Shown here one piece after another: positions 22,826 to 45,049 of a DNA stretch of 64,000 nt. Source of the stretch: Planctomycetota bacterium (GTDB lineage: Bacteria > Planctomycetota > Brocadiia > SM23-32); assembly GCA_021161675.1 (NCBI GenBank), contig JAGHAF010000030.1, forward strand, positions 9,376 to 73,375. The letters run 5' to 3'. The notes under the pieces are model-generated. The model had not been told where the DNA came from. It did no database searches and saw only the letters and a list, made by a program, of their open reading frames with translations. A program made the translations under genes and the position numbers. Every line of letters starts with the position of its first letter. The stretch's first letter is position 1.

Positions 22826-22849
22826 TATTAGCAGGAGGTAGAGAACACG

Positions 22850-24184: not shown

Positions 24185-24272
24185 ACGCATCACACGTCCC
24201 GACGATCAGCGCGGACTTGATAACCGGGATAGCACGTACTCGTTTCCTCCACAAGTTCCTGGCCTGGCGACT

Positions 24273-25367: not shown

Positions 25368-26905
25368 TGCGAGAGAGCGCAATAGTATTGGACTTCGGTT
25401 CGCAGTACAGTCAGCTAATTGCGCGGCGAGTGCGCGCCCTCGGCGTCTATTGCGAGATAGTCCCGCCCGGCGTTCTCATGGAAAAGCTGCGCAGAGACAA
25501 CGTGCGCGCCATCATCTTGTCCGGCGGGCCGGCCTCTGTCGTGACGGATGGAGCGCCGTCGCTCGACAAGGGCATCCTGGAGCTGGGCATCCCGCTCCTG
25601 GGGATTTGCTACGGCATGCAGCTTCTGGCGAAGCTTCTGGGTGGGACGGTTCGAGGCGCCGAATCTCGTGAATACGGCCCTGCGCTCCTCCACGTAGACG
25701 GCGCCAGGTGGCTGTTCGACGGGATGCCGGGCAAACTGGACGTCTGGATGAGCCACGGCGACCAGGTGGAGCGCCTGCCGGAAGGCTTTGAGCTTCTGGC
25801 TCACACGGCCAATTGCCCTGTGGCTGCCATGGGGCACAGCGAAAGGAAGATATACGGCGTGCAGTTCCACCCGGAGGTCGTCCATACTCCACGCGGCTCT
25901 GAGGTGCTCCGCAACTTCCTGTTCAACATCGCCGGCTGCAAGGGCGGATGGTCTATGGCCGGTTTCGTCGAGGAAGCCGTCGGCAAGATACGCGAGCGGG
26001 TTGGAAACGAGCGGGTATTGTGCGGCCTTTCCGGCGGCGTTGACTCCACGGTCACTGCCGCCTTGCTCGACCGCGCCATCGGGCGACGCTGCGTGGCCGT
26101 GTTTGTCGACAACGGGCTGCTGCGCATGGGCGAGGCGGAGGCCGTGCCGACGTTCTTCCGGGACGAATACCGGATCAACTTGCGAGTCGTGGACGCTCGG
26201 GAGCGATTCCTTGCCGCCCTGGAGGGCGTGACGGACCCCGAGCGGAAGCGGCACATAATAGGCCATATGTTCGTCGAGGTTTTCAAGGCGGAAGCGGACA
26301 AACTCGGCGACATCCCCTTCCTGGCTCAAGGGACGCTCTACCCGGACGTGATAGAAAGCACCTCTACCTTCGGCGGCCCATCCGCGCGGATCAAGAGTCA
26401 CCACAACGTGGGCGGGCTGCCGGACGACATAGATTTTGCGCTTGTGGAACCGCTCAGGGAGCTTTTCAAGGACGAAGTCCGTCAGCTCGGGCGCCGGCTC
26501 GGCCTGCCGGAGAAGGTGCTCACGCGTCAGCCTTTCCCCGGACCAGGACTGGCGGTTCGCATCATTGGCGAGGTGACCGATGAGCGCCTGCGAATGCTGC
26601 GCGAGGCCGACGCACGCGTGCAACAGGAGTTGGAAGACGAAGAGATATACGATCAGATCTGGCAGTCGTTCGCGCTCCTGCTGCCCGTCAAGAGTGTCGG
26701 CGTGATGGGCGATGAGCGCACCTACGGCAACGTCGTGGCCCTGCGCATCGTAAGCAGCGCGGACGGCATGACCTCCGACTGGGTCAAAGTGCCCTACGAA
26801 GTGCTGGGCCGCATATCCAGCCGCATTATCAACGAAGTGCGCGGCGTAGGTAGGGTCGTTTATGACATAAGCCCGAAACCCCCCAGCACAATCGAGTGGG
26901 AGTAA
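25367..26905 (+). CDS. guaA: GMP synthase (glutamine-hydrolysing)
   Basis: N-terminal class I GATase (GICYGMQ), SGGVDS PP-loop, C-terminal dimerisation domain. TGATG overlap with carA. Confidence 0.9.
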   Translation: MRESAIVLDFGSQYSQLIARRVRALGVYCEIVPPGVLMEKLRRDNVRAIILSGGPASVVTDGAPSLDKGILELGIPLLGICYGMQLLAKLLGGTVRGAESREYGPALLHVDGARWLFDGMPGKLDVWMSHGDQVERLPEGFELLAHTANCPVAAMGHSERKIYGVQFHPEVVHTPRGSEVLRNFLFNIAGCKGGWSMAGFVEEAVGKIRERVGNERVLCGLSGGVDSTVTAALLDRAIGRRCVAVFVDNGLLRMGEAEAVPTFFRDEYRINLRVVDARERFLAALEGVTDPERKRHIIGHMFVEVFKAEADKLGDIPFLAQGTLYPDVIESTSTFGGPSARIKSHHNVGGLPDDIDFALVEPLRELFKDEVRQLGRRLGLPEKVLTRQPFPGPGLAVRIIGEVTDERLRMLREADARVQQELEDEEIYDQIWQSFALLLPVKSVGVMGDERTYGNVVALRIVSSADGMTSDWVKVPYEVLGRISSRIINEVRGVGRVVYDISPKPPSTIEWE

Positions 26906-27510
26906 TGATTGCTGTCATCAGATACGGCGTCGGTAACGTCAAGAGTGTTCTCTGCGCCTTGCGTCATCTCGGCAGGGAGGCGATTCTCAGCTCCGACCCG
27001 GACGAGGTGGAAAGCGCCTCGGGCGTGATTCTCCCCGGCGTGGGCGCGTTTGCGACGGCCATGCAAAACTTGGAGCGTGACGGCCTGGACAGCGCCCTTT
27101 GCAGGATCAACAGCGCCGACAGACCGATCCTCGGCATCTGCCTCGGGTTGCAGCTTTTCTTCTCTGAAAGCGAGGAACATGGCTCCTACCGCGGGCTTGG
27201 ATTGCTGAGCGGGCGCGTGCGCAGATTCCCCCCCGGCGCCAAGGCGCCTCACATGGGATGGAACCAGGTCCGGCGGCAAAAGCCGTCTGCGCTCTTTGAC
27301 GGCATCCCGGACGATTCATTCTTTTACTTCGCGCACTCTTACTACGCACAGCCGGACGATACGGAGTCAATAATCGGCGTAACCGACTATGAGGGTTCTT
27401 TTGCATCCGCCGTTGCAAGGGAGAGCCTGTTCGGCGTGCAGTTCCACCCGGAAAAGAGCGGCCCCTGGGGCCTAAGAATGCTTGCTAACTTCTGCCACTT
27501 GTGTGAATAG
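26905..27510 (+). CDS. hisH: imidazole glycerol phosphate synthase glutaminase subunit HisH
   Basis: [15 protein letters not shown] start and GICLGLQ triad. Start chosen at the TAATG overlap with guaA; the tracked ORF begins 9 nt earlier. Confidence 0.85.
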
Positions 27511-27518
27511 GACATAGA

Positions 27519-28274
27519 ATGCTGGCAAAACGCATTATTCCATGCCTCGACGTAAAAAACGGCCGAGTCGTAAAAGGCGCCTCCTTCGTGTCCCTGCGTG
27601 ATGCCGGCGACCCGGTCGAAAGCGCGGCCCGCTATAGCGAAGCCGGCGCCGACGAACTGGTCTTCCTTGACATAACCGCCACCGTCGAGGCGCGCGCCAC
27701 CATTTGCGACCTGGTGGCGAGAGTGGCCGATGAGATTTCCATTCCGTTCACCGTAGGCGGTGGAATCGGCGCCACCAACCACATCAGCGACCTGCTGGAG
27801 GCCGGCGCGGACAAAGTCTCGATCAACACCGCCGCTGTGAAGAATAGACAGCTTATCACCCGCTCCGCGCAGACGTTCGGCTGCCAGTGCATAGTCGTGG
27901 CGATAGACGCAAAGCGGGCCGATGGATCATGGCTGGTTTCCATCGAATCGGGACGCACCCCTACGGACATCGATGCTATCGAATGGGCGCATCAGGTCGA
28001 AGGGCTCGGCGCCGGGGAAATCCTGCTTACATCAATAGATGCGGACGGCCACAAAACCGGCTACGACCTCGAGCTGACCGCAAAAGTCTCCGAAGCCGTG
28101 CGAATACCGGTAATCGCTTCCGGAGGCGCCGGAACTCCTCAGGACATATACAACGTGCTCACCGCAGGCAAGGCCGACGCAGCGCTGGCGGCCTCGATCT
28201 TCCATTATGGAAAGTTCAGCATAGCCGAGGTGAAACGCTATCTCGCCGAACGCTCCGTCCAGGTGCGCAGTTAG
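27519..28274 (+). CDS. hisF: imidazole glycerol phosphate synthase cyclase subunit HisF
   Basis: [21 protein letters not shown]-terminus, 251 aa TIM barrel. Confidence 0.9.
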
Positions 28275-28275
28275 A

Positions 28276-31200
28276 ATGCCAAAAAGAACCGACATCGAGA
28301 AGATACTCCTCATCGGCTCCGGACCGATCGTGATCGGCCAGGCCTGCGAATTCGATTATTCCGGCGCGCAAGCATGTAAGGCGCTCATCGAAGAGGGCTA
28401 CCAGGTCACGCTGCTCAACTCGAACCCGGCCACCATCATGACCGATCCGGTCATGGCCCATCGGACCTACATCGAACCGATAACGGCCGGCGTGCTGGCC
28501 AAAGTCATCGAGCGGGAGCGCCCGGACGCGCTGCTGGCTACGCTGGGCGGTCAGACCGCGCTGAACGTGGCCGTCCAGGCCTCTGAGGCGGGCGTGCTCG
28601 ACCGGTTCGCCGTGGAGATGATCGGCGCCAACGAGACGGCGATCAAATGCGCGGAGGACAGGCGTAAGTTCCGCGCGGCCCTTGAGGAAATCGGCGTGGA
28701 GATGCCCCGCAGCCGGGCCGTTTACTCGGTCCAAGAGGCGCGCGAGGCGGCCAGGGAGATCGGCTTTCCGCTGATAATACGCCCCAGCTTCACACTGGGC
28801 GGCACGGGGGCGTCCGTAGCGTATAACGTGGGGGAGTTTCAGACCGCCGCCGCGCGGGGCCTCGACGCGAGCATGATAGGCGAGGCGCTCATCGAGGAAT
28901 CCGTGATCGGCTGGAAGGAATACGAACTGGAGGTCATGCGCGACCGCAAGGATAACGTCGTCATAATTTGCTCGATCGAGAACATCGACGCCATGGGCGT
29001 CCACACGGGCGATTCGGTCACCGTAGCGCCGGCTCAGACGCTGACGGACAAACAGTACCAGAACATGCGCGACGCCGCCCTAGCCATTATCCGCAAGGTG
29101 GGCGTCGAGACGGGCGGCTCCAACATCCAGTTCGCCGTGCACCCGGACACGGGGCGGATGGTCGCCATTGAGATGAACCCCCGCGTGTCCCGCTCCTCGG
29201 CGCTCGCCAGCAAGGCCACCGGCTTCCCCATCGCCAAGATAGCCGCCAAGCTGGCGGTCGGCTACACACTCGACGAAATCCCCAACGACATCACCAGGGA
29301 GACGCCTGCCTGCTTTGAGCCCACTATTGACTACTGCGTCGTGAAGCTTCCGCGCTTCGCCTTCGAGAAGTTCCCCGACGCCGACGACACCCTCACTGTG
29401 TCCATGAAATCGGTCGGCGAAGCAATGGCGATCGGCCGCACCTTCAAGGAAGCTCTCCAGAAGGGCCTGCGGTCCCTTGAGACCGGCCTGAGCGGCCTGG
29501 ACAGGAAATGCGAAGCCAAAGTTGTCCCGGAGGACCTCCTCCCCATGCTCGCGCGACCGAACCCCTTGCGCCTGTTCTACGTCAAGCACGCCCTGAAGAA
29601 CAACATGCCCATCCAGCAGATAGCCGATCTGACACGCATTGACCCCTGGTTCCTTAACAACATCCGCCAGATCGTAGAGATGGAGCGGGAGCTCGGGTCC
29701 CTGAGCCCGGAGGAGTTACTCTCTGAGGAGTTCCTGCGAAAGGCAAAACGGACGGGCTTCTCCGACCGGCAGATCGCCGACCTCGGCGGCATGGACCCGG
29801 CGAAAGTCCGCCGCCGCAGAACCGACGTGGCAGTGCGCCCCGTCTACAGACTCGTTGACACCTGCGCAGCCGAGTTCGAGGCTTACACACCTTACTTCTA
29901 CTCCACCTACGAGTCCGAAGACGAAGCCCGGCCCGGCGCCAGAGAACGAGTCGTCATCATCGGCAGCGGCCCCAACCGAATCGGACAGGGCATCGAATTC
30001 GACTACTGCTGCGTCCACGCCGCGCTGGCCGCCCGCGAGGACGGTTACGATAGCATAATGATCAACTCCAACCCCGAAACGGTCTCCACGGACTACGACA
30101 CGGCCAACCGGCTCTACTTCGAGCCGCTCACCGCTGAGGACGTGCTGAACATCGTCGAGGCCGAGAAGCCCTACGGCGTGATACTCCAGTTCGGCGGCCA
30201 GACTCCGCTGAACATCTCAGCCGAGCTCGAGGCCAACGGCGTCCCTCTGCTGGGCACAAGCCCCCGGAGCATAGACCTGGCCGAAGACCGCGAACATTTC
30301 AGCCAGATTCTGCGCGAACTGGGCCTCAAACAGGCCCCCAGCGGCATTGCCACCACCTATGAAGCAGCATTGCAGCTTGCCAGGCGGATAGGCTACCCAG
30401 TGCTTGTGCGCCCCAGCTACGTATTGGGCGGACGGGCAATGGAGATCGTCTACGACGCCCAGGAACTGAAGCGCTTCATGCGCGAGGCCCTGAAGGCGTC
30501 CCCTGAGGGGTCCGTTCTGGTGGACAAGTTCCTGGAAGACGCCATCGAGGTTGACGTGGACGCCATAAGCGACGGACATCGCACCGTAATAGGCGCCATA
30601 ATGGAGCACATCGAGCAGGCAGGCGTTCACTCCGGCGACAGCGCGTGCGTCATCCCGCCGCAGACGCTCTCGCGACAGTTGCAGGACGAGATCGCCCGCC
30701 AGACAAGAGAACTTTCCAGCGCTCTCGATATCGTCGGCCTCATGAACATCCAGTTCGCCGTTCAGCAGGGCGAGGTATACGTCCTGGAGCTGAACCCGCG
30801 CGCCTCACGCACCATCCCATTCGTCTCGAAGGCCACCGGCGTGCCGCTGGCCAGGCTGGCGACAAAGGTGATGCTCGGCCGTTCCCTGGAGGAACTCGGA
30901 CTGACCGAGGAAGTCCGAATCAAGCACGTAGCCGTCAAGGAGGCCGTGTTCCCGTTCACCCGCTTCACCGGTATAGACACGCAGCTCGGCCCCGAGATGA
31001 AGTCCACGGGCGAGGTGATGGGCATCGCGGACGACTTTGGCATGGCGTTCGCCAAGGCACAGCTCGCGGCCGGACAGGACCTGTTGAAGGAAGGAGCGGT
31101 TTTCTTCAGCCTGTGCCAGCGGGATAAGACGTCTCTGTCCGCCGGTGTGGCTCGAAAGTTCTCGCAGATGGGGTTCGAGCTGGTAGCCACCGAGGGCACC

Positions 31201-31530
31201 GCCGCATTCTTGCGCGCTAGCGACATCCCCTGCCAACGCATAAACAAGGTGCGCGAAGGCAGGCCCCACGTGGTGGACGCAATGATCAACGGCGAGATCG
31301 GCCTGGTGATAAACACCCCAAGCGGCAAGAACCCGCGCCAGGACGAGATCGCCATACGCAGCACTGCCTGGGCGCGCAGGGTTCCCATCATCACCACCAT
31401 CCAGGGCGCGGTGGCCGCAGCGGAGGCCATCGCGGGGCTCAAGGAGCACTACCTCACCGTCAAGACCCTCCAGGAGTACATCATCGAAACCCACGGTGAA
31501 GCGCCGACGCCGCACGGAGCTCGTGTGTGA
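28276..31530 (+). CDS. carB: carbamoyl-phosphate synthase large subunit
   Basis: 1084 aa, duplicated ATP-grasp halves, MGS-like C-terminus. Confidence 0.95.
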
Positions 31531-31554
31531 CTTTCGCTATCCCCCTCCCCCCCG

Positions 31555-31583
31555 TTGACAGAATTGCTCCGATCCCATAGAAT
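31555..31583 (+). promoter_or_regulatory. candidate sigma-70 promoter TTGACA-17 nt-TAGAAT upstream of the arsR operon, followed by an AT-rich candidate operator (ATATCTAAATATATGAATA)
   Basis: Near-consensus hexamers at 31555..31560 and 31578..31583 with 17-nt spacing, about 100 nt before the arsR ATG, in a GC-rich genome. Confidence 0.45.
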
Positions 31584-31681
31584 ATCTAAATATATGAATA
31601 CTTCGATGATTCAAGAAACGCCCGCACTACGAAGCGCATTGCTGCCGTGAGCGCGAACACGCTTATGATGGGAGGCTTTGT

Positions 31682-31972
31682 ATGAGCGATGTTGAGCAAT
31701 ACTCCACAGTGTTCAAGGCGTTGTCGGCGCCCGTTCGGCTGCGCCTGCTGGGTATCCTGCCTGGAGACGACCGGGAAGGCGCCCTCTCCGTCTGCAATCT
31801 GGCCGAGAAACTGGGCATCTCCCAGCCTTGCCTGTCACACCACCTTAACATCCTGAGGTGCGCCGGCCTGGTGCGTTTCAAAAAGGACGGTTGCAGCACC
31901 TTCTATTTCGTAGACCGCAGCTACGTGGAGAGGCAGCTCGCCGGTTTCCGCAAGTGGATGGTGGAGCGATGA
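31682..31972 (+). CDS. ArsR/SmtB-family transcriptional regulator
   Basis: 96 aa, winged HTH (LSAPVRLRLLGIL...CNLAEKLGISQPCLSHHLNILRCAGLV). Confidence 0.75.
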   Translation: MSDVEQYSTVFKALSAPVRLRLLGILPGDDREGALSVCNLAEKLGISQPCLSHHLNILRCAGLVRFKKDGCSTFYFVDRSYVERQLAGFRKWMVER

Positions 31973-32925
31973 AGATCGCATTGATTTACGACGAGCCCTC
32001 CCCGCAGGGAGAAGGCGCCTGGGTGGAAGCGGAGTACGAGTCCCCCCGCACTATTGAGGCGCTGCTGGCGGCCATCGGCGCACACTGTGAGGAGGCGGTG
32101 CGCGTCCCGTTCGGTCCAGACCTGATCGAAAGGCTGCGGGCGGAAGGGCCGGACCTGGCTTTCAATATCGTCGAAGGCCGCGACGGGCCTTCGCGAGAGT
32201 CCATCGCGCCTGCCGTACTGGACTTTCTCGGGATACCCTACACAGGTTCCGACGGGGTTGCTCTCGGGATTTCGCTGAATAAGGCGCTGACCAAGCGCCT
32301 GGCATCCCAGCTCGGAATCCCGACTCCGGCGTTCTTTCTGGTTCACTCCGCACAGGAGGCCGTAGAGCGGGCCGCCGGGCTTGAATATCCAGTCCTGGTC
32401 AAGCCCAATTTCGGTGGTTCGAGCGTCGGGATTGGGCCGGAGAGCATCGTGCGATGCCCGGAGGCCCTTGCGCAAGTCGTCGAACGCGAACTCGCCCGTT
32501 ATAGTCAGCCCTGTCTGGTAGAGGCCTACGTAGAAGGCGAAGACCTTACGCTGGGCCTGCTCGGAAGCGATGATCTGGAAGCGCTGCCTGCCGGTAAGGT
32601 GATAACGCCCGGGGGAATCTACTCGGAGCTGGCGAAGAAGACGCACGAACGAGAAATCCTCTGTCCCTACGACGTCCCCCAGGAAGTCGAGGGAAAGCTG
32701 AGAGACTGGTCAGTGAAAATATTCCGGGCGATCGGCGCCCGCGACTTCGCCCGCGCGGACTACGTGCTGGGCGCCGATGGTCAACCGTGGTTTCTGGAGA
32801 TCAACCCCCTGCCGGGCCTGAGCCCCTACTATGGAGTGTTGCCCGTACTGGCCCAGGCCGCGGGATACACTCATTCGCAACTGATTGGGAGGATAATCAG
32901 CATTGTCCAGCAACGCCTTGCTTGA
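31969..32925 (+). CDS. ATP-grasp ligase of the D-alanine--D-alanine ligase family
   Basis: Start MKIALIYDE overlaps the arsR stop (ATGA). Ddl-like N-domain, ATP-grasp central domain (YPVLVKPNFGGSSVGI, FLEINPLPGL). Confidence 0.7.
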   Translation: MKIALIYDEPSPQGEGAWVEAEYESPRTIEALLAAIGAHCEEAVRVPFGPDLIERLRAEGPDLAFNIVEGRDGPSRESIAPAVLDFLGIPYTGSDGVALGISLNKALTKRLASQLGIPTPAFFLVHSAQEAVERAAGLEYPVLVKPNFGGSSVGIGPESIVRCPEALAQVVERELARYSQPCLVEAYVEGEDLTLGLLGSDDLEALPAGKVITPGGIYSELAKKTHEREILCPYDVPQEVEGKLRDWSVKIFRAIGARDFARADYVLGADGQPWFLEINPLPGLSPYYGVLPVLAQAAGYTHSQLIGRIISIVQQRLA

Positions 32926-34000
32926 CGGAGATAAGAGAACGGCCGCCGACTGGCGAGAAGAGCTGCAGAGCAGTGTTCGCACCCTTGAGCAGCTTGAGAA
33001 GTTCATCAACCTAACGCCGGAGGAACGCGAGGGGATAGAACAATGCCAGGGCGTCTTCAACTGGGGCATCAGCCCATACTATGCTTCGCTGATGGACCGG
33101 GACGACCCGGGCTGTCCCATTCGGCGTCAGGTGGTGCCGCGGATCGAGGAACTGCACGACCCGATCGGCGTCTGGGACCCGCTCAGAGAGCAGGATCACT
33201 CGCCTGTCGAGAACCTCATCCATGTCTATGAGGATCGGGTGGCCTTCTGCGTCAGCTCCCTCTGTCCGACGTTCTGCAGATTCTGTCTGCGCAAGCGGAT
33301 GGTGGACACGCTGGGCTGTCCGATCTCCGAAGACAACTTCGAAGAGGGCCTGGATTACATCCGTCGCACGCCGGCCATCCGCGACGTCCTGCTGACCGGT
33401 GGGGACCCTCTCCTGATGGAGGACGAACGGATCGAACGGATCGTAGCCAGGGTCCACGAGATACCTCACGTGGAACTGGTGCGCATCGGCAGCCGCTCCC
33501 CCTGCACGCTGCCCTCGCGCATAACGGAGGAACTGTGCGAGCGGCTTGCGCGACATCAGCCGTTCTGGATCAACACGCATTTCAATCACCCGAAGGAACT
33601 CACGCCGCAGGCCGTGGCCGCCTGCGGGCGGATCGTGGACCACGGCATCCCGTTGGGCAACCAGACCGTGCTGCTGAAGGGTATCAACGACGACGCGCGT
33701 ATCCTCAAGGAACTGGGTGAGCGCCTCGTCGCGGCGCGCGTGAGGCCGTACTACGTCTACCAGTGCCAGGTCCTTCAAGGAACGCATCACTTCCGCGTGC
33801 AAATCGAGGCAGGAGTGCGGATGATGCGAGACCTGCGCGGCAGGACGAGCGGCTTCGCAATACCACAGTACGTGCTTGACACCCCCTACGGGAAGGTCCC
33901 GCTCAATTATCAGTACATACGCGGCCGGGAAGGCAACGAGGTCATCCTGGAAACATTCTCGGGAAAGATATGGCGCGAACCGAACCCACAGTCATCGTGA
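32903..34000 (+). CDS. KamA-family radical SAM aminomutase (lysine 2,3-aminomutase-like)
   Basis: CPTFCRFCLRKRM (CxxxCxxC with the aminomutase context) plus PLP-binding region. 365 aa. Confidence 0.8.
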   Translation: MSSNALLDGDKRTAADWREELQSSVRTLEQLEKFINLTPEEREGIEQCQGVFNWGISPYYASLMDRDDPGCPIRRQVVPRIEELHDPIGVWDPLREQDHSPVENLIHVYEDRVAFCVSSLCPTFCRFCLRKRMVDTLGCPISEDNFEEGLDYIRRTPAIRDVLLTGGDPLLMEDERIERIVARVHEIPHVELVRIGSRSPCTLPSRITEELCERLARHQPFWINTHFNHPKELTPQAVAACGRIVDHGIPLGNQTVLLKGINDDARILKELGERLVAARVRPYYVYQCQVLQGTHHFRVQIEAGVRMMRDLRGRTSGFAIPQYVLDTPYGKVPLNYQYIRGREGNEVILETFSGKIWREPNPQSS

Positions 34001-35808
34001 TATGCCTGGGCAACCCGGGCGAGCGATTCGCCGGCAGCCGCCACAACGCCGGCTTTATTCTCGCCGATCACCTCGCCCAACGGAGGCAGTTCGGGCCCTT
34101 TCAGCCACTGGAAGGGACCGAGGCACTCGCCGCCGAAGGGACGCTTGCCAACATGCGCACCCTGCTGGTCAAGCCGACCACGGCAATGAATGACTGCGGC
34201 CGCGTAGTGTCCCCCCTCGCAAGGGACTACTCGTTCGACGAACACCTCTGGGTCGTCATCCATGACGACCTGGACCTGCCGCTGGGCAGCGTCAAAGGAC
34301 GTCAGAAAGGCGGCCATGGAGGCCATAACGGGGTGCGCTCTCTCCTGGAGGCCGCCGGCCGGCGGGACCTGGCGCGCGTGAAGCTGGGCGTGAGTTCTCG
34401 GCGGAAGGCCGACTACGAATCGGTAGCCGATTTCCTGCTCTCGAAATTCCACCCGGAGGAACTCCGCAGCCTACAGGAGGTCTTCCCTGACGCGGAGAAG
34501 GTATTGACGGATCAGATAAACTCCTTCGTGGTCGCCGCCACCGGACGAGACCGCCTCCAGGAGACTGCCCGGCGCTATCGCAAGGGCGCACTGGAAGAGG
34601 CGCGCACGGCCCTCGACGGGATTCCTGCGAGCTCACCATATCCCGTTATACTGCGTGGGCGCCAGATGCGCCGCGCCTTCGACGTCGTCACGGCGCTGGC
34701 AAAGCTGCTGAGAAAAGCCAGAGCGCTCGCCGCCAAGAACGGAGGGTTCAGGCGGCGCCTGGTCGAGTTTATACCGGACGAGCTGCGTCCGTTGCTGCCA
34801 CCATGCAACGGCTCGCAGCGGCTGTTCTTCGCAGCAGACCTCCACATTCTCGGGCAACGCTTGAAGGTCATAGAGCTTAACTGCGCCGTCGGCTACGGCC
34901 ATTATGCGGCGCTGGCTGACGAGGCGCTGTTCCCCATCGTGCGCCGGATAGCTGGCGAAGCTGAGCGGCCCAATGAATGGAACTTTGCCGCCTTCCTTCA
35001 CCGCCATGGGCTCAGGCCGTTGCACGAGTCCGGCGCCGGGGGCATTGCGTTCCTGCGTGGGTTCGGCGGCGAGGACATGTTCAACGTGGACGAGCTGGAG
35101 GGCGTGGCGAGGCGTATCGAGCGAGATACGGGCCTGCACGTGCCGCTGTGTCACGAGCGCGACCTGGCGCTGCGTAAAGACGGCCTCTACCTGGGCGGAA
35201 CCGGCCGAGTGGACCTGCTCTACGTGGAGGAGAACCTCTCGGAGTGGCCGGGCCCGGCCGACGACTCGCCGGTCCGGCGGGCCGTTGAGAGCGGCCTCGT
35301 GAGGACGTTTCCTGAGTTGGAGATGTTCCTTTACACCAGCAAGGGTTTTCTGTCTCTGCTCGCCGACCCCGAAGTGCAGGACATGCTTGGGCCCGACGAG
35401 GCGGAGCAGAAGGTTCTGCGCGAGAACATCCTCTGGTCGCACCCCCTTGACCGACACATCGAGCCAGCGGCCTACTACATGCTGGAGCAGGGGCTGCGAG
35501 TAGTGGTCAAGGACGCCCTGGGCGGGGGCGGCCGCGGGGTGACGGTGCTGCGGCCGGGCTCCTCCTCGCAACAGGCCGGGCACATCCTTCGCCGCCGTAT
35601 GGTGGAGGGTCGAAGCATCGTGCAGGGCTACTTCGAGGCCGGACGCTGGGCGGAAGATGACGACCTCAGGTTCGACGTTCGCGTGCTGTGCGCCGCCCAC
35701 GAGGGCGACATCACGATAGGACCGGTCTACGGGCGCATCTTCCGAGGGGCCAAGCTCAGCCTCTCCGGGCCCGACGCCGGCGTGGCGCCGGTTTATGCGC
35801 TCAGATAG
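33970..35808 (+). CDS. peptidyl-tRNA hydrolase (Pth) domain fused to a ~420-aa C-terminal domain of unknown function with ATP-grasp-like features
   Basis: N-terminal ~190 aa match the Pth family (TVIVICLGNPGERFAGSRHNAGF...HDDLDLPLGSVK...GGHGGHNGVRS). The C-terminal 420 aa lack Pth similarity and carry Gly-rich KDALGGGGRGVTV and FDVRVL motifs. One uninterrupted 612-codon frame. Confidence 0.6.
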   Translation: MARTEPTVIVICLGNPGERFAGSRHNAGFILADHLAQRRQFGPFQPLEGTEALAAEGTLANMRTLLVKPTTAMNDCGRVVSPLARDYSFDEHLWVVIHDDLDLPLGSVKGRQKGGHGGHNGVRSLLEAAGRRDLARVKLGVSSRRKADYESVADFLLSKFHPEELRSLQEVFPDAEKVLTDQINSFVVAATGRDRLQETARRYRKGALEEARTALDGIPASSPYPVILRGRQMRRAFDVVTALAKLLRKARALAAKNGGFRRRLVEFIPDELRPLLPPCNGSQRLFFAADLHILGQRLKVIELNCAVGYGHYAALADEALFPIVRRIAGEAERPNEWNFAAFLHRHGLRPLHESGAGGIAFLRGFGGEDMFNVDELEGVARRIERDTGLHVPLCHERDLALRKDGLYLGGTGRVDLLYVEENLSEWPGPADDSPVRRAVESGLVRTFPELEMFLYTSKGFLSLLADPEVQDMLGPDEAEQKVLRENILWSHPLDRHIEPAAYYMLEQGLRVVVKDALGGGGRGVTVLRPGSSSQQAGHILRRRMVEGRSIVQGYFEAGRWAEDDDLRFDVRVLCAAHEGDITIGPVYGRIFRGAKLSLSGPDAGVAPVYALR

Positions 35809-35834
35809 CCAGACAGCGGAACTCAAGGTGCGCT

Positions 35835-36443
35835 CTACTTGGGGGCCGCCTCCCTCGCTTCAAGCACGGAGACGGCCGTCGCAGCGAAAAGGTTCGCAGC
35901 AAACGCCGGCGCCGGCTTGTAGGCGGGCGTAAAATAGCGACTGTTCACGATGCGCATCCCGTTCTCCCGGCAGAAGCGCCGGAAATCCTTAACCGTCAGC
36001 ACACGAAGGTTCGGCGTGTCGTGCCACCTGTAAGGCAACGTCTTCGTGATCGGGGCGCGGCCCCCGAATAGCAGTTGCAGGCGGATGCGCCAGTGTCCGA
36101 AGTTCGGATAACTGATAATCGAACGCCGGCCCACGCGCAGCATCTCACGCGCCACTTGCGCCGGATTCAGAGCTTGCTGGAGGGTCTGGCTCAGGATAAC
36201 GCAGTCGAAGCTTCCGTCCCGGAACATGCTCATCCCTTCCAGCATGTCCCCGTGGTAGACGGGCACGCCCCGGCGTATGCACTCCCTGACCGCCTGCTCA
36301 TTGATCTCTATGCCACGCGCCTCAACCCCCTTGTCGCGGATTAGACGTTGCAGTAAGGCGCCGTCGCCGCAGCCGAGGTCGAGGACCCTGGCGCCTTGCG
36401 GGATATGCGCCTCGATGTATTCGTAGTCAATGCGAACGCCCAT
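35835..36443 (-). CDS. metW: methionine biosynthesis protein MetW (class I SAM-dependent methyltransferase fold)
   Basis: VLDLGCGDGALL motif, ~200 aa, immediately downstream of metX. Confidence 0.75.
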   Translation of the reverse strand: MGVRIDYEYIEAHIPQGARVLDLGCGDGALLQRLIRDKGVEARGIEINEQAVRECIRRGVPVYHGDMLEGMSMFRDGSFDCVILSQTLQQALNPAQVAREMLRVGRRSIISYPNFGHWRIRLQLLFGGRAPITKTLPYRWHDTPNLRVLTVKDFRRFCRENGMRIVNSRYFTPAYKPAPAFAANLFAATAVSVLEAREAAPK

Positions 36444-37618
36444 TAGCCGGTCGCCTCCTGTGCGTTCGCAAGAAAACTACGAATCACGTCCTCAAGCCCG
36501 GGATTCTCGAGCAAGAAAATATCGTGCCCGTATGGCGACTCCAGCTCGCAGAAGCTGACACGGACGCCATTTGCCTGCAGGGCGCGCACCAACTCGCGGG
36601 ATTGGTAAGTCGGAAATAGCCAGTCGCCGGTGAAGGAGACCACCAGGAAACGGCTCTTTACGCCGCGGAAGGCTTCGACGGCGCCGCCCAAATCGCTCGC
36701 CAGGTCGAAGTAATCCATCGCCTTTGTGATGTAGAGGTAGCTGTTGGCGTCGAAGCGTCCTACGAACTTGCCCCCCTGGTGGCGAAGGTAGCTTTCGACC
36801 TGAAAATCCGGCGGCCCGAAATCGTATCCAACGTCCTCCCTGTCCTGGAGGCGGCGACCGAACTTCTCGTGCATGGACTGATCGCTCAGGTAAGTGATAT
36901 GCCCGATCATGCGTGCCACGGCGAGCCCGCGTGCGGGCGGATTGCCACTGTAGTAGTCGCCGCCGTTCCAGTTCGGGTCGGCGTAGATAGCCTGCCGGCC
37001 TACTTCGTCGAAGGCGATCGCCTGGGCGCTGAGCCTGGTGGCGGTGGCAATTGGCACGACGCAGCGCACGATGTCCGGATAGTCGATCGCCCAGCGAAGC
37101 GCCTGCATCCCGCCGAATGAGCCGCCGATCACGCATAAGAGCTGGTCCAGCTCGAGATGCCGGCTCACGAGCGCGTGCTGCACCTTCACCATGTCTTCCA
37201 CCGTGACCATGGGAAAGTCCAGGCCGAAAGGCTCTCCCGTTTTGGGATTGACGGAAGACGGGCCGGTGCTCCCCTTACAGGCGCCGATGATGTTCGAGCA
37301 GATCACGAAGTACTTGCGGGTGTCTATGGGCTTGCCCGGGCCGACCATGATGTCCCACCAGCCGGGCTCCGGATCGTCTGGCGAGTACCTGCCGCACACG
37401 TGCGCGTCGCCTGAAAGCGCGTGGCATATCAAGATGGCGTTGTCGCGCTCGGGCGAGAGCGTCCCGCAGGTCTCGTAGGCCACGGTGATCGGGCCGAGCT
37501 TCGCGCCGCAACGCAGGGGCAGTTCGTTCGGCGGCTCCGCGAACTGCCAGTGCTTGGTCTCAACTATGTCGAACGATTGCTCGTCGTTCATTGCCGCTAC
37601 CCGCTCAGAGCCTGGCAC
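36443..37618 (-). CDS. metX: homoserine O-acetyltransferase MetX
   Basis: alpha/beta hydrolase with [10 protein letters not shown] nucleophile elbow, 391 aa. Confidence 0.85.
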
Positions 37619-38883
37619 AGGTCTTCTTTGATGTCTTCGATGTCCTCGATCCCGACCGAAAGGCGGATGAAGTCCTCGGTAACGCCCGTCTGCAACAGTT
37701 CCTCTGCGCTGAGTTGCTGGTGCGTCGTGCTGGCGGGATGAATGGCGAGCGTGCGGGCGTCGCCGATGTTGGCCAGGTGGCTTATCAGCCGGAGTCCGTC
37801 AATGAACTTCTTGCCGGCCTCCCGGCCGCCCTTGACTCCGAACCCGACCATGCCGCCGAAGCCGCCAGAGAGATAGCGGGTCGCCAGTTCATACGCCGGG
37901 TGATCCGGCAGGCCGGGGTAGTTCACCCAGCTCACCTTGGGATGCTCCTGCAGGAACCGGACGACTTCGAGAGCGTTCTCACAGTGTCTCGGCATGCGCA
38001 CGTGCAGCGTCTCGATGCCCTGGAGGATGAGAAAAGCGTTCATCGGGCTGATGCAGCCGCCCAGGTCCCGCAGCATCCGCACGCGGAGCCGGGCGACGTA
38101 CGCCGCTTCGCCGAAGGTTTCGAGGAAGCGCAGCCCATGGTAGGCGGGATCGGGCTCCAGCATCTCCGGGAACCGTCCGCTTCCGGCCCAATCGAACCCG
38201 CCTCCCCCGGCAATGAGTCCGCCGATGCTGTTGCCATGACCGCCCAGGTACTTGGTAAGCGAGTGCACGACAATGTCCGCCCCGTGCTCCAGAGGGCGGC
38301 ACAGATAGGGCGTCGCCATCGTATTGTCCACCATCACTGGTATTCCCTGTGCGTGTGCGACCTGGCAAATGGCCTGGAAATCAGGCACCGTCAGGCGCGG
38401 GTTCCCGATCGTCTCCAGAAAGATGAGCCTGGTGCGATCGGTGATGGCCGCCTCGAACTCGCGAGGGTCGTCCGTGTCGGTGAAGACGACGTCAATACCC
38501 ATCTTCTGCGGGAAGGTCTGGCTGAAGAGTGTGTACGTGCCTCCGTAGAGGCCGCTGGAGGAGACGATCTGGTCGCCCTTTCCAAGGATGGCCAGGCAGG
38601 CCGCGTTGGTTGCGCTCATCCCGCTGGAGAACGCCACGGCGCCGACTGCGCCCTCGAGCATCGCCACCCGCTTCTCCAGAACGTCCGTGGTGGGATTCAT
38701 GATGCGGGTGTAGATGTAGCCCGGCTCTTCCAGAGCGAAGAGCCGGGCGGCGTGGTCGCTGTTCTCGAAGACGTAGGAGGTGGTCTGGTAAATGGGGACG
38801 GCACGGGCATGTGTGTCGCTGTCCGGCACGTGCCCCCCGAGCAAGCAGGCAGTAGCGAACTTCAGTTCAGGCTTCTCGTTCAT
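37597..38883 (-). CDS. metY: O-acetylhomoserine aminocarboxypropyltransferase (sulfhydrylase) MetY
   Basis: PLP Cys/Met-metabolism family, 428 aa, [10 protein letters not shown] lysine motif. Confidence 0.85.
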
Positions 38884-38923
38884 CTCGTTCTCCCTGGTGC
38901 AAAAGGTGAAGGTGTACCAAGGG

Positions 38924-39313
38924 TTACGTCTTCCGGCCTACCTTCTCGCGGTAGTCCAGAACAGCGGCCTGAAGGGCCTCTTCCGCAAGGACGGAGCAAT
39001 GCCGCTTCCGGGCGGGCAGTCCGCCGAGCGCCTCGGTGACCGCCCTATTCGAGATTTCCAGCGCTTCCTCGACGGTTTTGCCCTTCACCATTTCCGTCAC
39101 GATGCTGCTGCTGGCGATAGCTGCCGCGCAGCCAAACGTCTGAAACTTCGCGTCCACGATGCGGCCGTCCTCCACCTTGATGAACAACTTCATAATGTCC
39201 CCACACACCGGGTTGCCCACCAGCCCCACGCCGTCCGCATTATCAATGACACCAATGTTGCGCGGATTCGTGAAGTAATCCATCACTTTCTCGCTGTAGC
39301 CATCCAACGCCAT
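38924..39313 (-). CDS. NifU/IscU-type Fe-S cluster assembly scaffold
   Basis: 129 aa with [16 protein letters not shown] and a third Cys spaced as in IscU scaffolds. Confidence 0.8.
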
Positions 39314-39368
39314 GATTCTACTCGATTCTGAAGCCCTGAGTGTAAATGTTCATCCTCTGGCCGAATGC

Positions 39369-40184
39369 CTATTCCTTGCGCAGCGGTTCATTCAGGCTCC
39401 CCGACCTGTAGCCCTGGAGGTCAAGCGTGACGTAGACAAACCCCAGGGCCTTGAATTCCTCCACCACCTTCGCGTTCACCTCCGGTTCGGCAAGCCGGTG
39501 GACACGGTCGGCCTCCACTTCTATGCGCGCCAGGGCGCCATGGCTCCTGACCCTGACCTGGCTGAATCCCATTTGCCTGAGCAGCTTCTCGGCCTGCTCC
39601 ACGCGGGCGAGTTTCTCAGCCGTTATCGCCTCCCCGTAGGGGAAGCGCGAGGCCAGGCACGCCATCGAGGGACGGTCCCAGGTTGGCAGACCCATTTCCT
39701 TGGACAGCGCTCGGATGTCGGCCTTCGTGAGGCTGGCCTCCACGAGGGGGCTCTTCACCCCCGCCTCCTTGGCGGCTTTCGTGCCGGGCCGGAAGTCCGA
39801 GCAGTCGTCGAGGTTGGTCGCATCGAGCACAAAGGCGATGCCTTCGCGCTGCGCAATGTCCAGCAGCCTTCGGAACAACTCCCTTTTGCAGTAGTAGCAG
39901 CGCTGGGGCGGGTTCGCTGAGAAGTCCTCGTCAGCCAACTCATCTGTGGAGATCGTCTCATGTCTCACGCCCAGCGAACGCGCTATCCGGCGCGCCTCCT
40001 GGAGTTCCTCCTGCGGATAGATCGCAGAGGCAGCCGTAACGGCGAGGACTTTGCCGTTCAACACGTCGGCCGCGACTTTGAGCAGGAACGTGCTGTCAAC
40101 GCCGCCGGAGTACGCTATCAGGGCGCTGGCCATGCGGCCGAGTGTCGCGCGCAGGCTCTGGAGTTTTTTTTGTGTCGCGATCAT
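39369..40184 (-). CDS. PP-loop ATP pyrophosphatase (TIGR00268/LarE-like putative sulfur transferase)
   Basis: AYSGGVDST PP-loop and conserved CYYCK motif. Confidence 0.65.
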   Translation of the reverse strand: MIATQKKLQSLRATLGRMASALIAYSGGVDSTFLLKVAADVLNGKVLAVTAASAIYPQEELQEARRIARSLGVRHETISTDELADEDFSANPPQRCYYCKRELFRRLLDIAQREGIAFVLDATNLDDCSDFRPGTKAAKEAGVKSPLVEASLTKADIRALSKEMGLPTWDRPSMACLASRFPYGEAITAEKLARVEQAEKLLRQMGFSQVRVRSHGALARIEVEADRVHRLAEPEVNAKVVEEFKALGFVYVTLDLQGYRSGSLNEPLRKE

Positions 40185-41257
40185 TCCACAATCCCTCCGC
40201 CCAGAACGGTGTCGCCGTCGTAGAAAACCGCCGATTGCCCGGAGGCGACCGCCGCCTGCGGCGCCTGAAACGCCACCTCCGCGCAGCCGTCCCCATCTGG
40301 GGCGACGAGAGCCGGGACCTCCGGCTGGCGGTAACGGACCTTTACCGTGACATTCAGCGGGCCTTCCGGCCTCTCGAAAGCAATCCAGTTCATATTCGTG
40401 ACACGCAGCCTGGAGAGCATCAGTTCCTTCCGTGCGCCAACAACGACCGTTCTGAGCGCCGGCTGGACGGCGAGAACGTACAGGGCCTCAGCGGCCGCAA
40501 TGCCCAGGCCCTTGCGCTGGCCCACGGTGTAGAAGGCGACCCCGCTGTGCTCGCCCAGCACGTCGCCGCGCGTGTTCACTATGGGTCCGGGCTGGAGTGA
40601 CTCCGAGAATCTTTCCGCCAGGAACCGCCGGTAGTCTCCGTCCGCGACAAAGCAGACGTCCTGGCTTGCAGGCCTGTCATGAACCGCCAGCCCAAAGGAC
40701 TTCGCCCGTTTTCGTGTCTCCTCTTTGGTCATCTCACCCAACGGGAACATGGCGCGTGAAAGCTGCTCTTGGGAAAGCGAATAAAGGAAGTAAGACTGGT
40801 CTTTAGCGGCGTCCAGCCCCTTTTTCAGCAGATACCTGCCCGTGCGCCTGTCGCGGCAGAGCCTGGCGTAATGGCCCGTCGCTACGCCAGCGGCGCCGAG
40901 GGAATCCGCAAAGTCGAGAAGCCGCCCGAACTTCACGGCGCGATTGCACTCCACGCATGGGTTCGGCGTCCTCCCCGCCAGGTAGGCGCGGCAGAAATAA
41001 TCAACGACCGTTTCCTCAAAGAACTCCACGTAATCGAGCGCGTAGAACGGGATGCCGATGACGGAGGCCGCGCGGCGCGCCACGTCCGCTCCTGCGACCC
41101 CGCAGCAGCCACGCCGGCCTTCCCCGGGCGAGCCCGGATTCGCCAGCTTCAGCGTGACGCCTATCGCCTCACACTCCTGCGCCTTGAGCAACGCGGCGGC
41201 GGTCGAAGAGTCCACCCCGCCGGACATCGCTACCAGTATTGGCTTTTGAGCCGTCAT
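40181..41257 (-). CDS. mnmA: tRNA-specific 2-thiouridylase MnmA
   Basis: VAMSGGVDSS PP-loop, 358 aa with catalytic Cys positions. Confidence 0.85.
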   Translation of the reverse strand: MTAQKPILVAMSGGVDSSTAAALLKAQECEAIGVTLKLANPGSPGEGRRGCCGVAGADVARRAASVIGIPFYALDYVEFFEETVVDYFCRAYLAGRTPNPCVECNRAVKFGRLLDFADSLGAAGVATGHYARLCRDRRTGRYLLKKGLDAAKDQSYFLYSLSQEQLSRAMFPLGEMTKEETRKRAKSFGLAVHDRPASQDVCFVADGDYRRFLAERFSESLQPGPIVNTRGDVLGEHSGVAFYTVGQRKGLGIAAAEALYVLAVQPALRTVVVGARKELMLSRLRVTNMNWIAFERPEGPLNVTVKVRYRQPEVPALVAPDGDGCAEVAFQAPQAAVASGQSAVFYDGDTVLGGGIVE

Positions 41258-41259
41258 CT

Positions 41260-44070: not shown

Positions 44071-44086
44071 TGTCCGCTCTCCTCGA

Positions 44087-45013: not shown

Positions 45014-45049
45014 TCAATCGTCCCTCCAGGTTGGTTTCAAGTTCTTCAT

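Follow-up and report, generated by a model that had tools for sequence, protein, structure and literature searches.

What product is made by an operon in which an ArsR/SmtB-family regulator is followed by an ATP-grasp ligase, an amino-acid aminomutase and a fusion protein with a peptidyl-tRNA hydrolase (Pth) domain? Such an operon is located in the window analysed here, a 64,000-nucleotide stretch of DNA from an uncultured member of the Planctomycetota (Table 1). The first-pass annotation had described a four-gene operon behind a near-consensus promoter, with three enzymes of the Ddl ATP-grasp, KamA and Pth families and a regulator of the ArsR family. The family assignments were confirmed, and the operon was borne out by overlapping genes on the + strand and by the promoter upstream. 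Successive genes overlap: arsR and ddl share 4 nt (ATGA), ddl and kamA 23 nt, and kamA and pth 31 nt. A purine-rich stretch resembling a Shine-Dalgarno sequence lies before every start codon in the operon. Within the operon no convincing terminator was detected on the + strand, and the number of terminator-like sites on both strands was 6, as against 3.4 +/- 1.9 in shuffled sequences. Among the PADLOC models of anti-phage defence, none matched the three enzymes, and ArsR matched a generic HTH only.

Table 1. Features of the operon in the window (positions are those of the window).
Feature	Position	Strand	Description
sigma-70-type promoter TTGACA-17-TAGAAT	31555-31583	+	11/12 consensus positions
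AT-rich box TAGAATATCTAAATATATGAATACTTCGATGA	31578-31609	+	about 30 bp, overlapping the -10 hexamer and the leader start; candidate ArsR operator
arsR	31682-31972	+	ArsR/SmtB-family winged-helix regulator, 96 aa
Ddl-like gene	31969-32925	+	Ddl-family ATP-grasp ligase, 318 aa
KamA-like gene	32903-34000	+	radical-SAM/PLP amino-acid 2,3-aminomutase family, 365 aa, TTG start
Pth fusion gene	33970-35808	+	Pth plus circularly permuted ATP-grasp, 612 aa, single ORF
Pth (PTH1) domain	33994-34521	+	residues 9-184; PF01195, 152.8 bits
circularly permuted ATP-grasp carboxylate-amine ligase domain	34540-35805	+	residues 191-612; eukaryotic GS/GspS/YgiC type

The neighbourhood search proposed in the first-pass annotation recovered the triad, with arsR upstream and in the same order, in five other metagenome-assembled genomes of Brocadiia/Planctomycetota (GTDB genomes L001-L005). 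The identity to the window proteins was 57-63% for ArsR, 58-69% for Ddl, 77-83% for KamA and 58-69% for the fusion. The flanks of these five loci are unrelated to those of the window, and carB, metW and metX, which flank the operon in the window, were absent beside the operon in all five. The window genes near the operon include those for Cys, Met and Fe-S. Two outcomes had been named beforehand as contrary to the first reading, a triad unconserved elsewhere or divided into separate transcripts, and an ordinary EpmB with epmA/efp nearby; both were looked for, and neither was observed.

The promoter is the sole TTGACA-17-TAGAAT site within 31000-36600 (5.6 kb). Shuffled sequence yields a mean of 1.0 such site, and the match by itself is thus not significant. 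A promoter of the form TTGAC(A/G)-N17-TAnAAT is, however, kept together with the AT-rich box in L001, L003, L004 and L005 within surrounding GC-rich DNA that is unconserved, and the -35 and -10 hexamers of the window align with their counterparts in L001, L004 and L005. The AT-rich box, with 15 invariant columns across the window and the same four loci, is inferred to be a candidate operator for ArsR. In L003 it forms the perfect dyad AGTATCT-N8-AGATACT; a search of the window box with a 6-nt seed gave no exact inverted repeat. The regulator itself matched Pfam HTH_5 at 9.5e-12 and passed NF033788, the NCBIfam model of ArsR/SmtB metalloregulators (69.7 bits versus a cut-off of 55), and its orthologues lie upstream of the module in L001-L005, L010, L019 and L096. 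Most orthologues carry the full CVC motif of helix alpha3 (L002-L005 among them), while the window protein has SVC, keeping a single Cys at this position, and L001 has CVG. Across the clade, the QPC and GCS motifs keep their Cys residues. The proposed control of metalloregulator type therefore holds only at the level of the ArsR/SmtB family, and the metal-binding CVC motif is incomplete in the window protein.

The Pth fusion was found at full length in about 25 clusters of 607-625 aa from independent sources. Its Pth domain passes the equivalog model TIGR00447 (152.4 bits versus a cut-off of 100) and carries the motifs GNPG, RHNAG, MNxxG, HDDLD and GHNG. In E. coli numbering, the catalytic residues of PTH1 are His20, Asp93, Asn10, Asn68 and Asn114, and its tRNA clamp is Lys105/Arg133. 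Across 28 fusions the positions of His20, Asn68, Asp93 and Arg131 are invariant (His25, Asn74, Asp99/100 and Arg136 in the window), as are His119 and Gly121 of GHNG, and the positions of Asn114, Lys105 and Arg133 are near-invariant (Asn120, Arg111 and Lys138 in the window). The domain thus resembles canonical PTH1 both in passing the model and in keeping the catalytic and tRNA 5'-phosphate clamp positions. It differs in being fused to a 420-residue ligase, in being acidic rather than basic (pI 6.66 in the window; median 5.55 over 24 fusions versus 9.10 for standalone Pth) and in its place within a repressor-controlled biosynthetic operon. As it is acidic, at most 46% identical to a standalone Pth (36-46% for the nearest ones found) and under an ArsR-type repressor, the fused Pth appears to be specialised rather than housekeeping. 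A second subfamily of fusions (P0033, P0035 and P0037) has an overall identity of 24-26%, yet keeps the Pth catalytic and 5'-phosphate clamp residues; it sits in a different gene context without KamA.

The C-terminal portion of about 420 residues was identified as a second ATP-grasp ligase from a fold match and from the permuted order of its ExN and Lys/Gly-loop motifs. The first-pass annotation had named the protein a Pth fusion without recognising this ligase, nor had it recognised the widespread Ddl/KamA module described below. With Pfam, no match at E <= 0.01 was obtained past residue 184 of the window fusion (PF03738, PF04174 and PF14403 included). The AF2 model of the full-length fusion gave pLDDT 90.7 and pTM 0.76, and the ligase domain modelled alone gave pTM 0.89; these models accordingly do not predict with confidence how the two domains are oriented to each other. 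In orthologues the ligase domain is acidic (pI about 5), and the linker helix of residues 170-270 is basic (pI 11). The domain is only 12-16% identical to the enzymes of the matched fold group, which are eukaryotic glutathione synthetase (GS), homoglutathione synthetase (which adds beta-alanine), GspS, trypanothione synthetase, YgiC and Cp1B, all with free small-molecule substrates (PMC12568646). It differs from the GS/GspS group also in its fusion to Pth, in having a Ddl-type instead of a GshA-type ligase as partner, and in the lack of a Pfam match to GSP_synth or CP_ATPgrasp_1/2.

All sequences came from metagenome-assembled genomes, and P0031, a related cluster representative, is plainly chimeric, carrying a piece of cytochrome bd. 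We therefore considered whether unrelated genes had come to lie side by side by chance, or whether the 612-aa ORF arose from faulty assembly or annotation. Such a reading is effectively refuted by the recurrence of the four genes in one order, their junctions overlapping, in six independent assemblies whose flanks differ, and by the about 25 independent full-length fusion clusters; the conserved promoter and operator box likewise argue against it, and we regard its probability as negligible.

The Ddl-like protein matched Pfam Dala_Dala_lig_C (PF07478) with 125.4 bits versus a cut-off of 24. Like Ddl and Ddl-like amino-acid ligases, it has an ATP-grasp domain at its C-terminus, and its Mg/ATP motifs RxD and ExN could be aligned with those of DdlB. 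Its ATG start is backed by the N-termini of homologues, MKIALIYD being common to 11 of them. A true D-Ala-D-Ala ligase was rejected (170 versus 243 for NF002378 and 157.4 versus 245.65 for TIGR01205), and all NCBIfam models of Ddl, VanA and VanG were failed, the Van-type scores being far under the cut-off. In the N-terminal region this family has an AEYES...T motif in place of GGxSxExEVS, the corresponding motif of Ddl, and it is tied genomically to KamA and not to mur genes.

The KamA-like protein passes TIGR00238 (312.8 bits versus a cut-off of 199.2) and matches the structure of lysine 2,3-aminomutase (LAM; 2A5H) with E = 6.7e-108. In LAM numbering, it keeps CxxxCxxC (Cys125, Cys129 and Cys132), Arg134 for the alpha-carboxylate and the PLP-binding Lys337. 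In the substrate pocket Asp330 is kept, but position 293, Asp in LAM, is Gln. Asp293 and Asp330 of LAM bind the epsilon-amino group of lysine. Because Gln replaces Asp293, the substrate is probably not lysine, or is bound differently from lysine in LAM. This Gln is invariant in the clade of the window, which includes L001-L005, L008, L010, L012, L014-L017, L021, L023, L024, L053 and L096-L098; a distant clade of 42 loci has Asp/Asp at positions 293/330. Four assignments were rejected for the window protein: AblA (TIGR03820, 410.1 versus 525.4 bits; Gln at 293; an operon without GNAT), EpmB (TIGR03821, 234.3 versus 369.3 bits), glutamate 2,3-aminomutase (TIGR04368, 400.3 versus 650 bits) and arginine 2,3-aminomutase (TIGR04468, 402.8 versus 600 bits). 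Among about 50 ORFs scanned in the window, none was efp, epmA, an ablB-type GNAT or a second pth. The failure of the EpmB and AblA models and the lack of these partner genes among the ORFs scanned agree with the original proposal that this KamA context is unlike the EF-P and AblB systems.

The association of the two genes extends beyond the six loci. In a search with the Ddl-like profile and with flanks of up to 7 kb fetched per side, the 80 best loci from metagenomes included 60 with a KamA-like gene, usually adjacent to its Ddl-like partner or one gene removed from it, and the two are fused as one ORF in L024 and L027. A tandem second paralogue of the Ddl-like gene was present in 36 of the 80. 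Only the third gene beside the pair differs between loci; it can be a second Ddl-like ligase, a PF09924 protein or the Pth-ligase fusion, and in L008, L012 and L098, all with Gln293, no third gene is present. The PF09924 protein occupies the same position in a sister clade (L010/L011, L021, L096 and L097; mutual identity 48-55%). PF09924 is the C-terminal domain of MprF, characterised as transferring aminoacyl groups from aminoacyl-tRNA. The pair also adjoins gshB and a GCS2 ligase in L014 and catalase in L015; some clusters of the distant clade include GNAT, and a YchF-like gene comes after one distant cluster (L047). The Ddl-like/KamA-like pair thus appears to be a functional unit, and a second ligation would be a general feature of the module.

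With AblA/AblB, the operon shares the pattern of a KamA-family aminomutase and then an acylating or capping enzyme for the beta-amino acid, and AblA is the top-scoring curated model; it differs in an aminomutase that falls under the AblA cut-off with Asp293 changed to Gln, and in ATP-grasp ligases where an AblB-type GNAT would be. A compatible-solute pathway of this kind, in which ATP-dependent ligation caps the beta-amino acid to give a zwitterionic or neutral osmolyte, might be suggested by this nearest model (410 bits), by the Asp/Asp-clade protein that nearly reaches the AblA cut-off (520.9 versus 525.4), by the clusters with GNAT and by source metagenomes of which several, judged from contig names, may be saline or sediment. 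We consider it improbable, as the module has no linked transporter or osmoregulatory element, regulators of the ArsR/SmtB type are atypical as osmotic switches, two successive ATP-dependent ligations with a Pth domain would be expensive for a bulk solute, and the lysine-binding Asp293 is lost in the window clade.

The EpmB/EpmA/EF-P system likewise has a KamA-family enzyme, and Pth offers a possible link to translation; here the difference lies in the failed EpmB model and in epmA and efp, not found among the window ORFs scanned. Transfer of the beta-amino acid onto a translation factor or ribosomal protein, as in EF-P beta-lysylation or RimK-type tailing, with Pth rescuing stalled translation, is a very remote prospect, even though EpmB acts in EF-P modification, Pth and EF-P both handle consequences of ribosome stalling, and the YchF-like gene follows one cluster. 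Besides the EpmB score (234 versus 369 bits) and the missing partners, the flanks of the six loci share no conserved candidate for a target protein, and both matched ligase families are small-molecule ligases.

A beta-amino-acid peptide or an aminoacyl-tRNA-linked product, as the first-pass annotation had suggested, would be consistent with all of these findings. Our leading reading, which we hold tentatively and at less than even odds, is an autoregulated operon under ArsR/SmtB control for the ribosome-independent assembly of a small beta-amino-acid peptide or amide, the final ligation perhaps proceeding via aminoacyl-tRNA. First, as family membership suggests, the KamA-family enzyme would relocate the amino group of a free amino acid from the alpha carbon to C3. 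Via an acyl-phosphate intermediate, the Ddl-type ligase would then couple this beta-amino acid to another amino acid. Finally, the GS/GspS-type domain of the fusion would activate a carboxylate for coupling to an amine delivered as aminoacyl-tRNA, forming an N-acyl-aminoacyl-tRNA, and the Pth domain would cleave the ester to release the product and recycle the tRNA. N-acyl-aminoacyl-tRNA is the substrate class of Pth, and delivery of the amine as aminoacyl-tRNA is the most economical reading because a catalytically intact-looking Pth is permanently fused to the ligase.

Two lines of evidence point to the tRNA link. One is the conservation of the Pth catalytic and clamp residues across the fusions, including the subfamily with 24-26% identity; the other is the aminoacyl-tRNA transferase family PF09924 at the third-gene position in the sister clade. 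The latter supports a role for tRNA without supporting the precise reaction, because PF09924 uses aminoacyl-tRNA as acyl donor and the proposed step uses it as amine. Against a tRNA step stands the acidity of both the Pth and the ligase domains, unexpected for proteins that hold tRNA; as a speculation, the basic linker helix might offset it. Moreover, the pair can work without a tRNA-linked partner, since three loci have no third gene.

By analogy, the final step may follow the logic established experimentally for the PEARLs (peptide aminoacyl-tRNA ligases such as TglB, BhaB and AmmB), in which ATP phosphorylates a C-terminal carboxylate, aminoacyl-tRNA attacks and the tRNA ester is then hydrolysed (bioRxiv 10.1101/2024.03.12.584671). 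The chemistry proposed here would be identical, and the PEARLs are reported to be similar to GspS and GS, with an origin in the same GS/GspS-like ATP-grasp fold group (bioRxiv 10.1101/2024.03.12.584671). As to membership in the PEARL/LanB-type enzymes, which is marked by a LanB-like glutamylation-type domain, a scaffold peptide and dependence on ATP and aminoacyl-tRNA, the window ligase was rejected.

The same two-ligase beta-amino-acid pathway could instead run from free building blocks, as glutathione, homoglutathione and glutathionylspermidine are made, tRNA being no substrate and Pth a safeguard or a passenger, an alternative that we take seriously but judge unlikely. As a safeguard, Pth might clear tRNAs blocked by the beta-amino acid or acylated derivatives (peptidyl-tRNA that has stalled or dropped off, or aminoacyl-tRNA that has become N-acylated); as a passenger, it would simply be the lineage's own Pth fused to a ligase. 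This agrees with the free small-molecule substrates of all characterised members of the matched fold group, with the acidity of both domains and with the score of the window-clade Pth in the model of genuine Pth (152 versus 100 bits). The persistence of the fusion down to about 25% identity and in a context without KamA, however, argues for direct mechanistic coupling and not for protection from a beta-amino acid, and it would be odd for a stress repressor to control an essential housekeeping Pth. The product from free building blocks might be a thiol or a metal-protective peptide, as hinted by the CVC and other conserved Cys residues of the ArsR orthologues, by gshB, GCS2 and catalase beside the pair, and by the Cys, Met and Fe-S genes around the window operon; the gshB, catalase and Cys-gene neighbourhoods were, however, seen once each and are unconserved.

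Under the tRNA-dependent reading, the fusion of Pth to a circularly permuted ATP-grasp domain would represent a separate origin of non-ribosomal peptide-bond formation that depends on tRNA, an ordinary GS/GspS-type ATP-grasp taking aminoacyl-tRNA as its amine nucleophile and finishing a beta-amino-acid peptide with a dedicated and co-evolving Pth, a proposal that is on present evidence doubtful. If it is true, the product may be a protective thiol resembling glutathione and controlled by ArsR, and the enzyme class would extend to the KamA-independent subfamily of P0033, P0035 and P0037. In this conserved operon of uncultured Planctomycetota, the combination of a putative beta-amino-acid-forming enzyme with two ATP-dependent ligases suggests an undescribed small-peptide pathway.

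When one genome per GTDB species was scanned, arsR, the ddl-like gene, the kamA-like gene and the Pth fusion gene were found together at five further loci (L001-L005), all in metagenome-assembled genomes of Brocadiia/Planctomycetota; the five assemblies are CAZEAP01, JAUVVP01, CAYQXJ01, JAWODG01 and CAZZNQ01. The gene order and the presence of overlapping junctions were common to all five, and none shared the flanking genes of the window. In the window itself the overlaps are, in operon order, 4 nt (ATGA), 23 nt and 31 nt. The ddl-kamA-pth-fusion triad recognized in the first-pass annotation is thus kept elsewhere as a unit. Since the full fusion of 607-625 aa was present in approximately 25 independent protein clusters, the 612-aa ORF is not an artefact. 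The flanks of the six loci yielded no additional conserved accessory gene; a gene for a Gfo/Idh/MocA oxidoreductase lies downstream on the opposite strand in three of them. An anti-phage defence system was rejected, as PADLOC gave no match for any operon enzyme.

Features of the operon and its immediate flanks, in window coordinates
Feature	Position	Strand	Remark
carB	28276-31530	+	upstream flank of operon
Promoter TTGACA-17-TAGAAT	31555-31583	+	hexamers recur in orthologous loci
AT-rich box	31578-31609		candidate ArsR operator
arsR	31682-31972	+	96 aa
Ddl-family ATP-grasp gene	31969-32925	+	318 aa
KamA-family radical-SAM gene	32903-34000	+	365 aa
Pth fusion ORF	33970-35808	+	612 aa; residues 1-184, PTH1 peptidyl-tRNA hydrolase
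metW-metX-metY block	35835-38883	-	convergent to operon, downstream flank

Members of the window clade, and several sister-clade loci too, have an ArsR-family gene upstream of the module. Although shuffled sequence likewise yields a single match of the TTGACA-17-TAGAAT type, the promoter is believable because its hexamers recur in orthologous loci and because the adjacent 30-bp AT-rich box is kept (15 invariant columns) amid unconserved GC-rich DNA. This box suggests itself as the candidate ArsR operator; an exact inverted repeat with a 6-nt seed was not found within it in the window. A riboswitch or leader RNA in the 5' leader of about 100 nt was rejected, since no Rfam family matched at E <= 1 in 31500-31750. 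Neither an Rfam family at gathering thresholds nor a tRNA gene was found in the whole window.

Elsewhere in the window, positions 20010-31530 (+) hold a nitrogen/glutamine-amidotransferase run of glutamate dehydrogenase, class-II GATase, glutamine synthetase, carA, guaA, hisH-like, hisF and carB. The opposite flank, 35835-45493 (-), is a sulfur/Fe-S block of metW, metX, O-acetylhomoserine sulfhydrylase-like, iscU/nifU-like, PP-loop (QueC-like), mnmA and nadA genes, together with a class-V aminotransferase (cysteine desulfurase-like), a hexapeptide transferase (cysE-like), a PALP enzyme (cysK-like) and an Rrf2 regulator. Positions 1-14244 encode Mrp/complex-I-like antiporter subunits, both small and large subunits of a NiFe hydrogenase, and the maturation genes hycI-like, hypB, hypF, hypD and hypE-like. 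The segment 46000-52000 has a lower G+C (0.555-0.59; about 0.62 elsewhere) and may have been acquired horizontally or be in decay; it carries three small SAM-methyltransferases, a CbiA/ParA-type ATPase, a DUF1684 gene and a short SLAC1/TehA-like ORF (163 aa, model positions 1-136 of 331).

The most unusual component is the fusion protein. Its Pth domain passed the Pth equivalog model with all catalytic motifs present. Across the 28 aligned fusions there was no variation at the equivalents of E. coli His20, Asn68, Asp93 and Arg131, or at the neighbouring GHNG-motif residues His119 and Gly121, which are numbered as in the window protein. Nearly invariant, even in a subfamily of 25% identity, were the equivalents of Asn114 and of Lys105/Arg133, which clamp the tRNA 5'-phosphate (window Asn120, Arg111 and Lys138). 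In this divergent second subfamily (P0033, P0035 and P0037), Asn10 and Asn114 were replaced in two of the three proteins (Asn114 is kept in P0037), while His20 and Asp93 were kept. The fused Pth domains (window 33970-34539 and homologues P0002-P0025) were acidic: their median pI was 5.55 (24 fusions), while that of standalone Pths was 9.10 (115 proteins). A basic helical linker (residues 170-270, pI 11) connects the Pth domain to the ligase domain. The closest standalone Pths were only 36-46% identical to the fused domain, and no other pth was found within the window. Taken together, the intact chemistry, the atypical charge, the deep persistence of the fusion and its control by a repressor suggest that the domain is a specialised paralogue and not the housekeeping enzyme.

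For residues 191-612 of the fusion, neither a Pfam match nor a PDB sequence match was found. An AlphaFold model of this region, made from 30 homologues, was confident (pLDDT 88.7, pTM 0.89), and its fold grouped with eukaryotic-type glutathione/homoglutathione synthetases, YgiC, glutathionylspermidine/trypanothione synthetases and Cp1B, the ligase of the E-64 pathway. By this model the domain belongs with the circularly permuted (CP) ATP-grasp carboxylate-amine ligases, and the sequence motifs concur: a Mg-binding ExN motif (E302/N304) precedes a Lys/Gly-rich ATP loop (K514, GGGGRG), both invariant. The model of the full-length fusion reached a pTM of 0.76, too low for a confident placement of the two domains relative to each other. 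Very few proteins belong to the family, as only four of 1.84 billion cluster representatives scored below 1e-30 in an exhaustive profile search. Next in rank came P0033, P0035 and P0037 (620-638 aa), followed by ordinary CP_ATPgrasp/GSP_synth proteins. As each of these three begins with a Pth domain, there are two subfamilies with the Pth/CP-ATP-grasp architecture, between which identity is only 24-26%. The second (L006:406-3589, L007:6761-9863, L094:2091-5209) always follows and overlaps a conserved protein of approximately 412-433 aa without Pfam/NCBIfam match, lies near an S9 peptidase (L006, L094) or AstE/AspA-like and ArgRS genes (L007), and has no KamA or Ddl gene at its loci. A relative of the ligase domain without Pth, P0030 (427 aa, on a 2.4-kb contig), shares its MARTEP N-terminus with the full fusion, and could be a natural in-frame Pth deletion or an assembly artefact.

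The KamA homologue passed the KamA-family model but none of the four equivalog models, which are those for AblA, EpmB and the Arg and Glu aminomutases. Its only solved relative is Clostridium lysine 2,3-aminomutase (LAM) 2A5H (E = 6.7e-108), and alignment with it indicated that the CxxxCxxC cluster, the carboxylate-binding Arg134 and the PLP-binding Lys337 are kept. Of the two residues that hold the epsilon-amino group of lysine in LAM, Asp293 and Asp330, the latter is kept and the former is replaced by Gln. This Gln293 was invariant across all members of the window clade examined, whereas more distant KamA-like genes beside Ddl-like genes encode Asp/Asp in 42 of 42 loci (one such protein scored 520.9 against the AblA cut-off of 525.4); the window enzyme therefore falls in a distinct specificity class. 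An ordinary AblA, or the ordinary EpmB already doubted in the first-pass annotation, was ruled out by the curated score cut-offs, by position 293 and by the missing partner genes (epmA/efp among the window ORFs scanned). A protein-modification role of the EF-P type is unlikely. The Gln293 clade represents a candidate amino-acid 2,3-aminomutase of hitherto undescribed specificity.

The Ddl-like ligase passed Pfam Dala_Dala_lig_C and failed every curated Ddl/Van model; a true Ddl for peptidoglycan was ruled out by these cut-offs and by the conserved pairing with KamA. One metagenome scan with the family profile gave at least 578 relatives, and among the best 80 of these a KamA-like gene was within the fetched flanks in 60, mostly adjacent or one gene off, a second, tandem Ddl-like paralogue in 36 and a GNAT in 9. 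Furthermore, the Ddl-like ATP-grasp and KamA-like radical-SAM/LAM_C domains are fused in single ORFs of 697 and 817 aa (L024:456-2549, L027:6632-9085), one of Gln293 and the other of Asp293 type. From this co-occurrence and these fusions, the Ddl-like and KamA-like genes form one functional unit, and a second step of amide formation is common. Within the Gln293 clade, the third gene is the Pth/CP-ATP-grasp fusion in the window, L001-L005, L017 and L023, a PF09924 gene at the same position in L010/L011, L021, L096 and L097 (mutually 48-55% identical), and absent from L008, L012 and L098. Widespread in metagenomes (L029-L092, e.g. L047:6992-10167 and L066:5584-9392) are two tandem Ddl-like ligases with an AblA-like (Asp293/Asp330) KamA and sometimes a GNAT, which implies a beta-lysine-containing product.

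The anatomy of the module is solid and conserved, and we infer all of its functions. The aminomutase would supply a beta-amino acid, the Ddl-type ligase would join it into a dipeptide, and the glutathione/glutathionylspermidine synthetase-type ligase domain would form a second amide bond, a skeleton formally parallel to the synthesis of glutathione, homoglutathione and glutathionylspermidine. If the ATP-grasp domain used aminoacyl-tRNA as the amine, an N-blocked aminoacyl-tRNA would result, of which the ester then needs cleavage; as this is exactly the substrate class of Pth, the fused Pth would be accounted for. For peptide aminoacyl-tRNA ligases (PEARLs), it is established experimentally that an acyl-phosphate is formed, aminoacyl-tRNA attacks and the tRNA is then hydrolysed, and these enzymes reportedly resemble glutathionylspermidine synthase and glutathione synthetase (bioRxiv 10.1101/2024.03.12.584671). 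We tentatively favour a last step that depends on tRNA as in PEARLs, the scheme as a whole being possible but somewhat short of probable. The PF09924 protein at the position of the fusion in the sister clade points in the same direction, as PF09924 is the domain of MprF that carries out aminoacyl-tRNA-dependent transfer. In PF09924 enzymes, however, the tRNA ester is the acyl donor and not the amine, so that the bond formed would differ between the two alternative third genes. Further caveats to the tRNA-dependent step are that the ligase and Pth domains are both acidic, the charge analysis if anything making it less likely that the ligase domain binds tRNA strongly, and that some relatives have no third gene at all.

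As to the product, hints of a thiol or stress role, each weak or single-instance, came from the CVC motif and extra conserved Cys residues of the ArsR orthologues, from the Cys/Met/Fe-S genes adjoining the window operon, from one locus where prokaryotic gshB and a GCS2-type glutamate-cysteine ligase gene adjoin a Gln293-type Ddl-KamA pair (L014:2330-4683), and from another with catalase upstream and a C69 dipeptidase downstream of the pair (L015:61-1089, 5010-6335). A second obvious reading is that of a compatible solute, as made by AblAB.

All parts of the operon fall in known superfamilies, and the conserved Pth-ligase fusion is the distinctly unusual element. To our knowledge, Pth has been described elsewhere only in housekeeping rescue and, in an inactive form, as the splicing factor CRS2. 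The literature searched, outside the 2009 Aravind-group amidoligase survey, described neither this gene set nor a Pth/ATP-grasp fusion, and yielded no relevant paper on the Pth, ATP-grasp and aminomutase combination or on kamA with a D-alanine-ligase-like gene. The operon is an entry point to an uncharacterised, widespread Ddl-like/KamA-like module, of which the predicted product is a beta-amino-acid peptide. The Pth-ligase fusion could be a new mechanism of tRNA-dependent ligation; if so, it would be the first biosynthetic role for Pth, and ATP-grasp ligases would have come to use aminoacyl-tRNA in the manner of PEARLs on more than one occasion, also outside RiPP pathways. A stress-regulated beta-peptide or thiol, if true, would be new physiology for the uncultured Brocadiia-class Planctomycetota.
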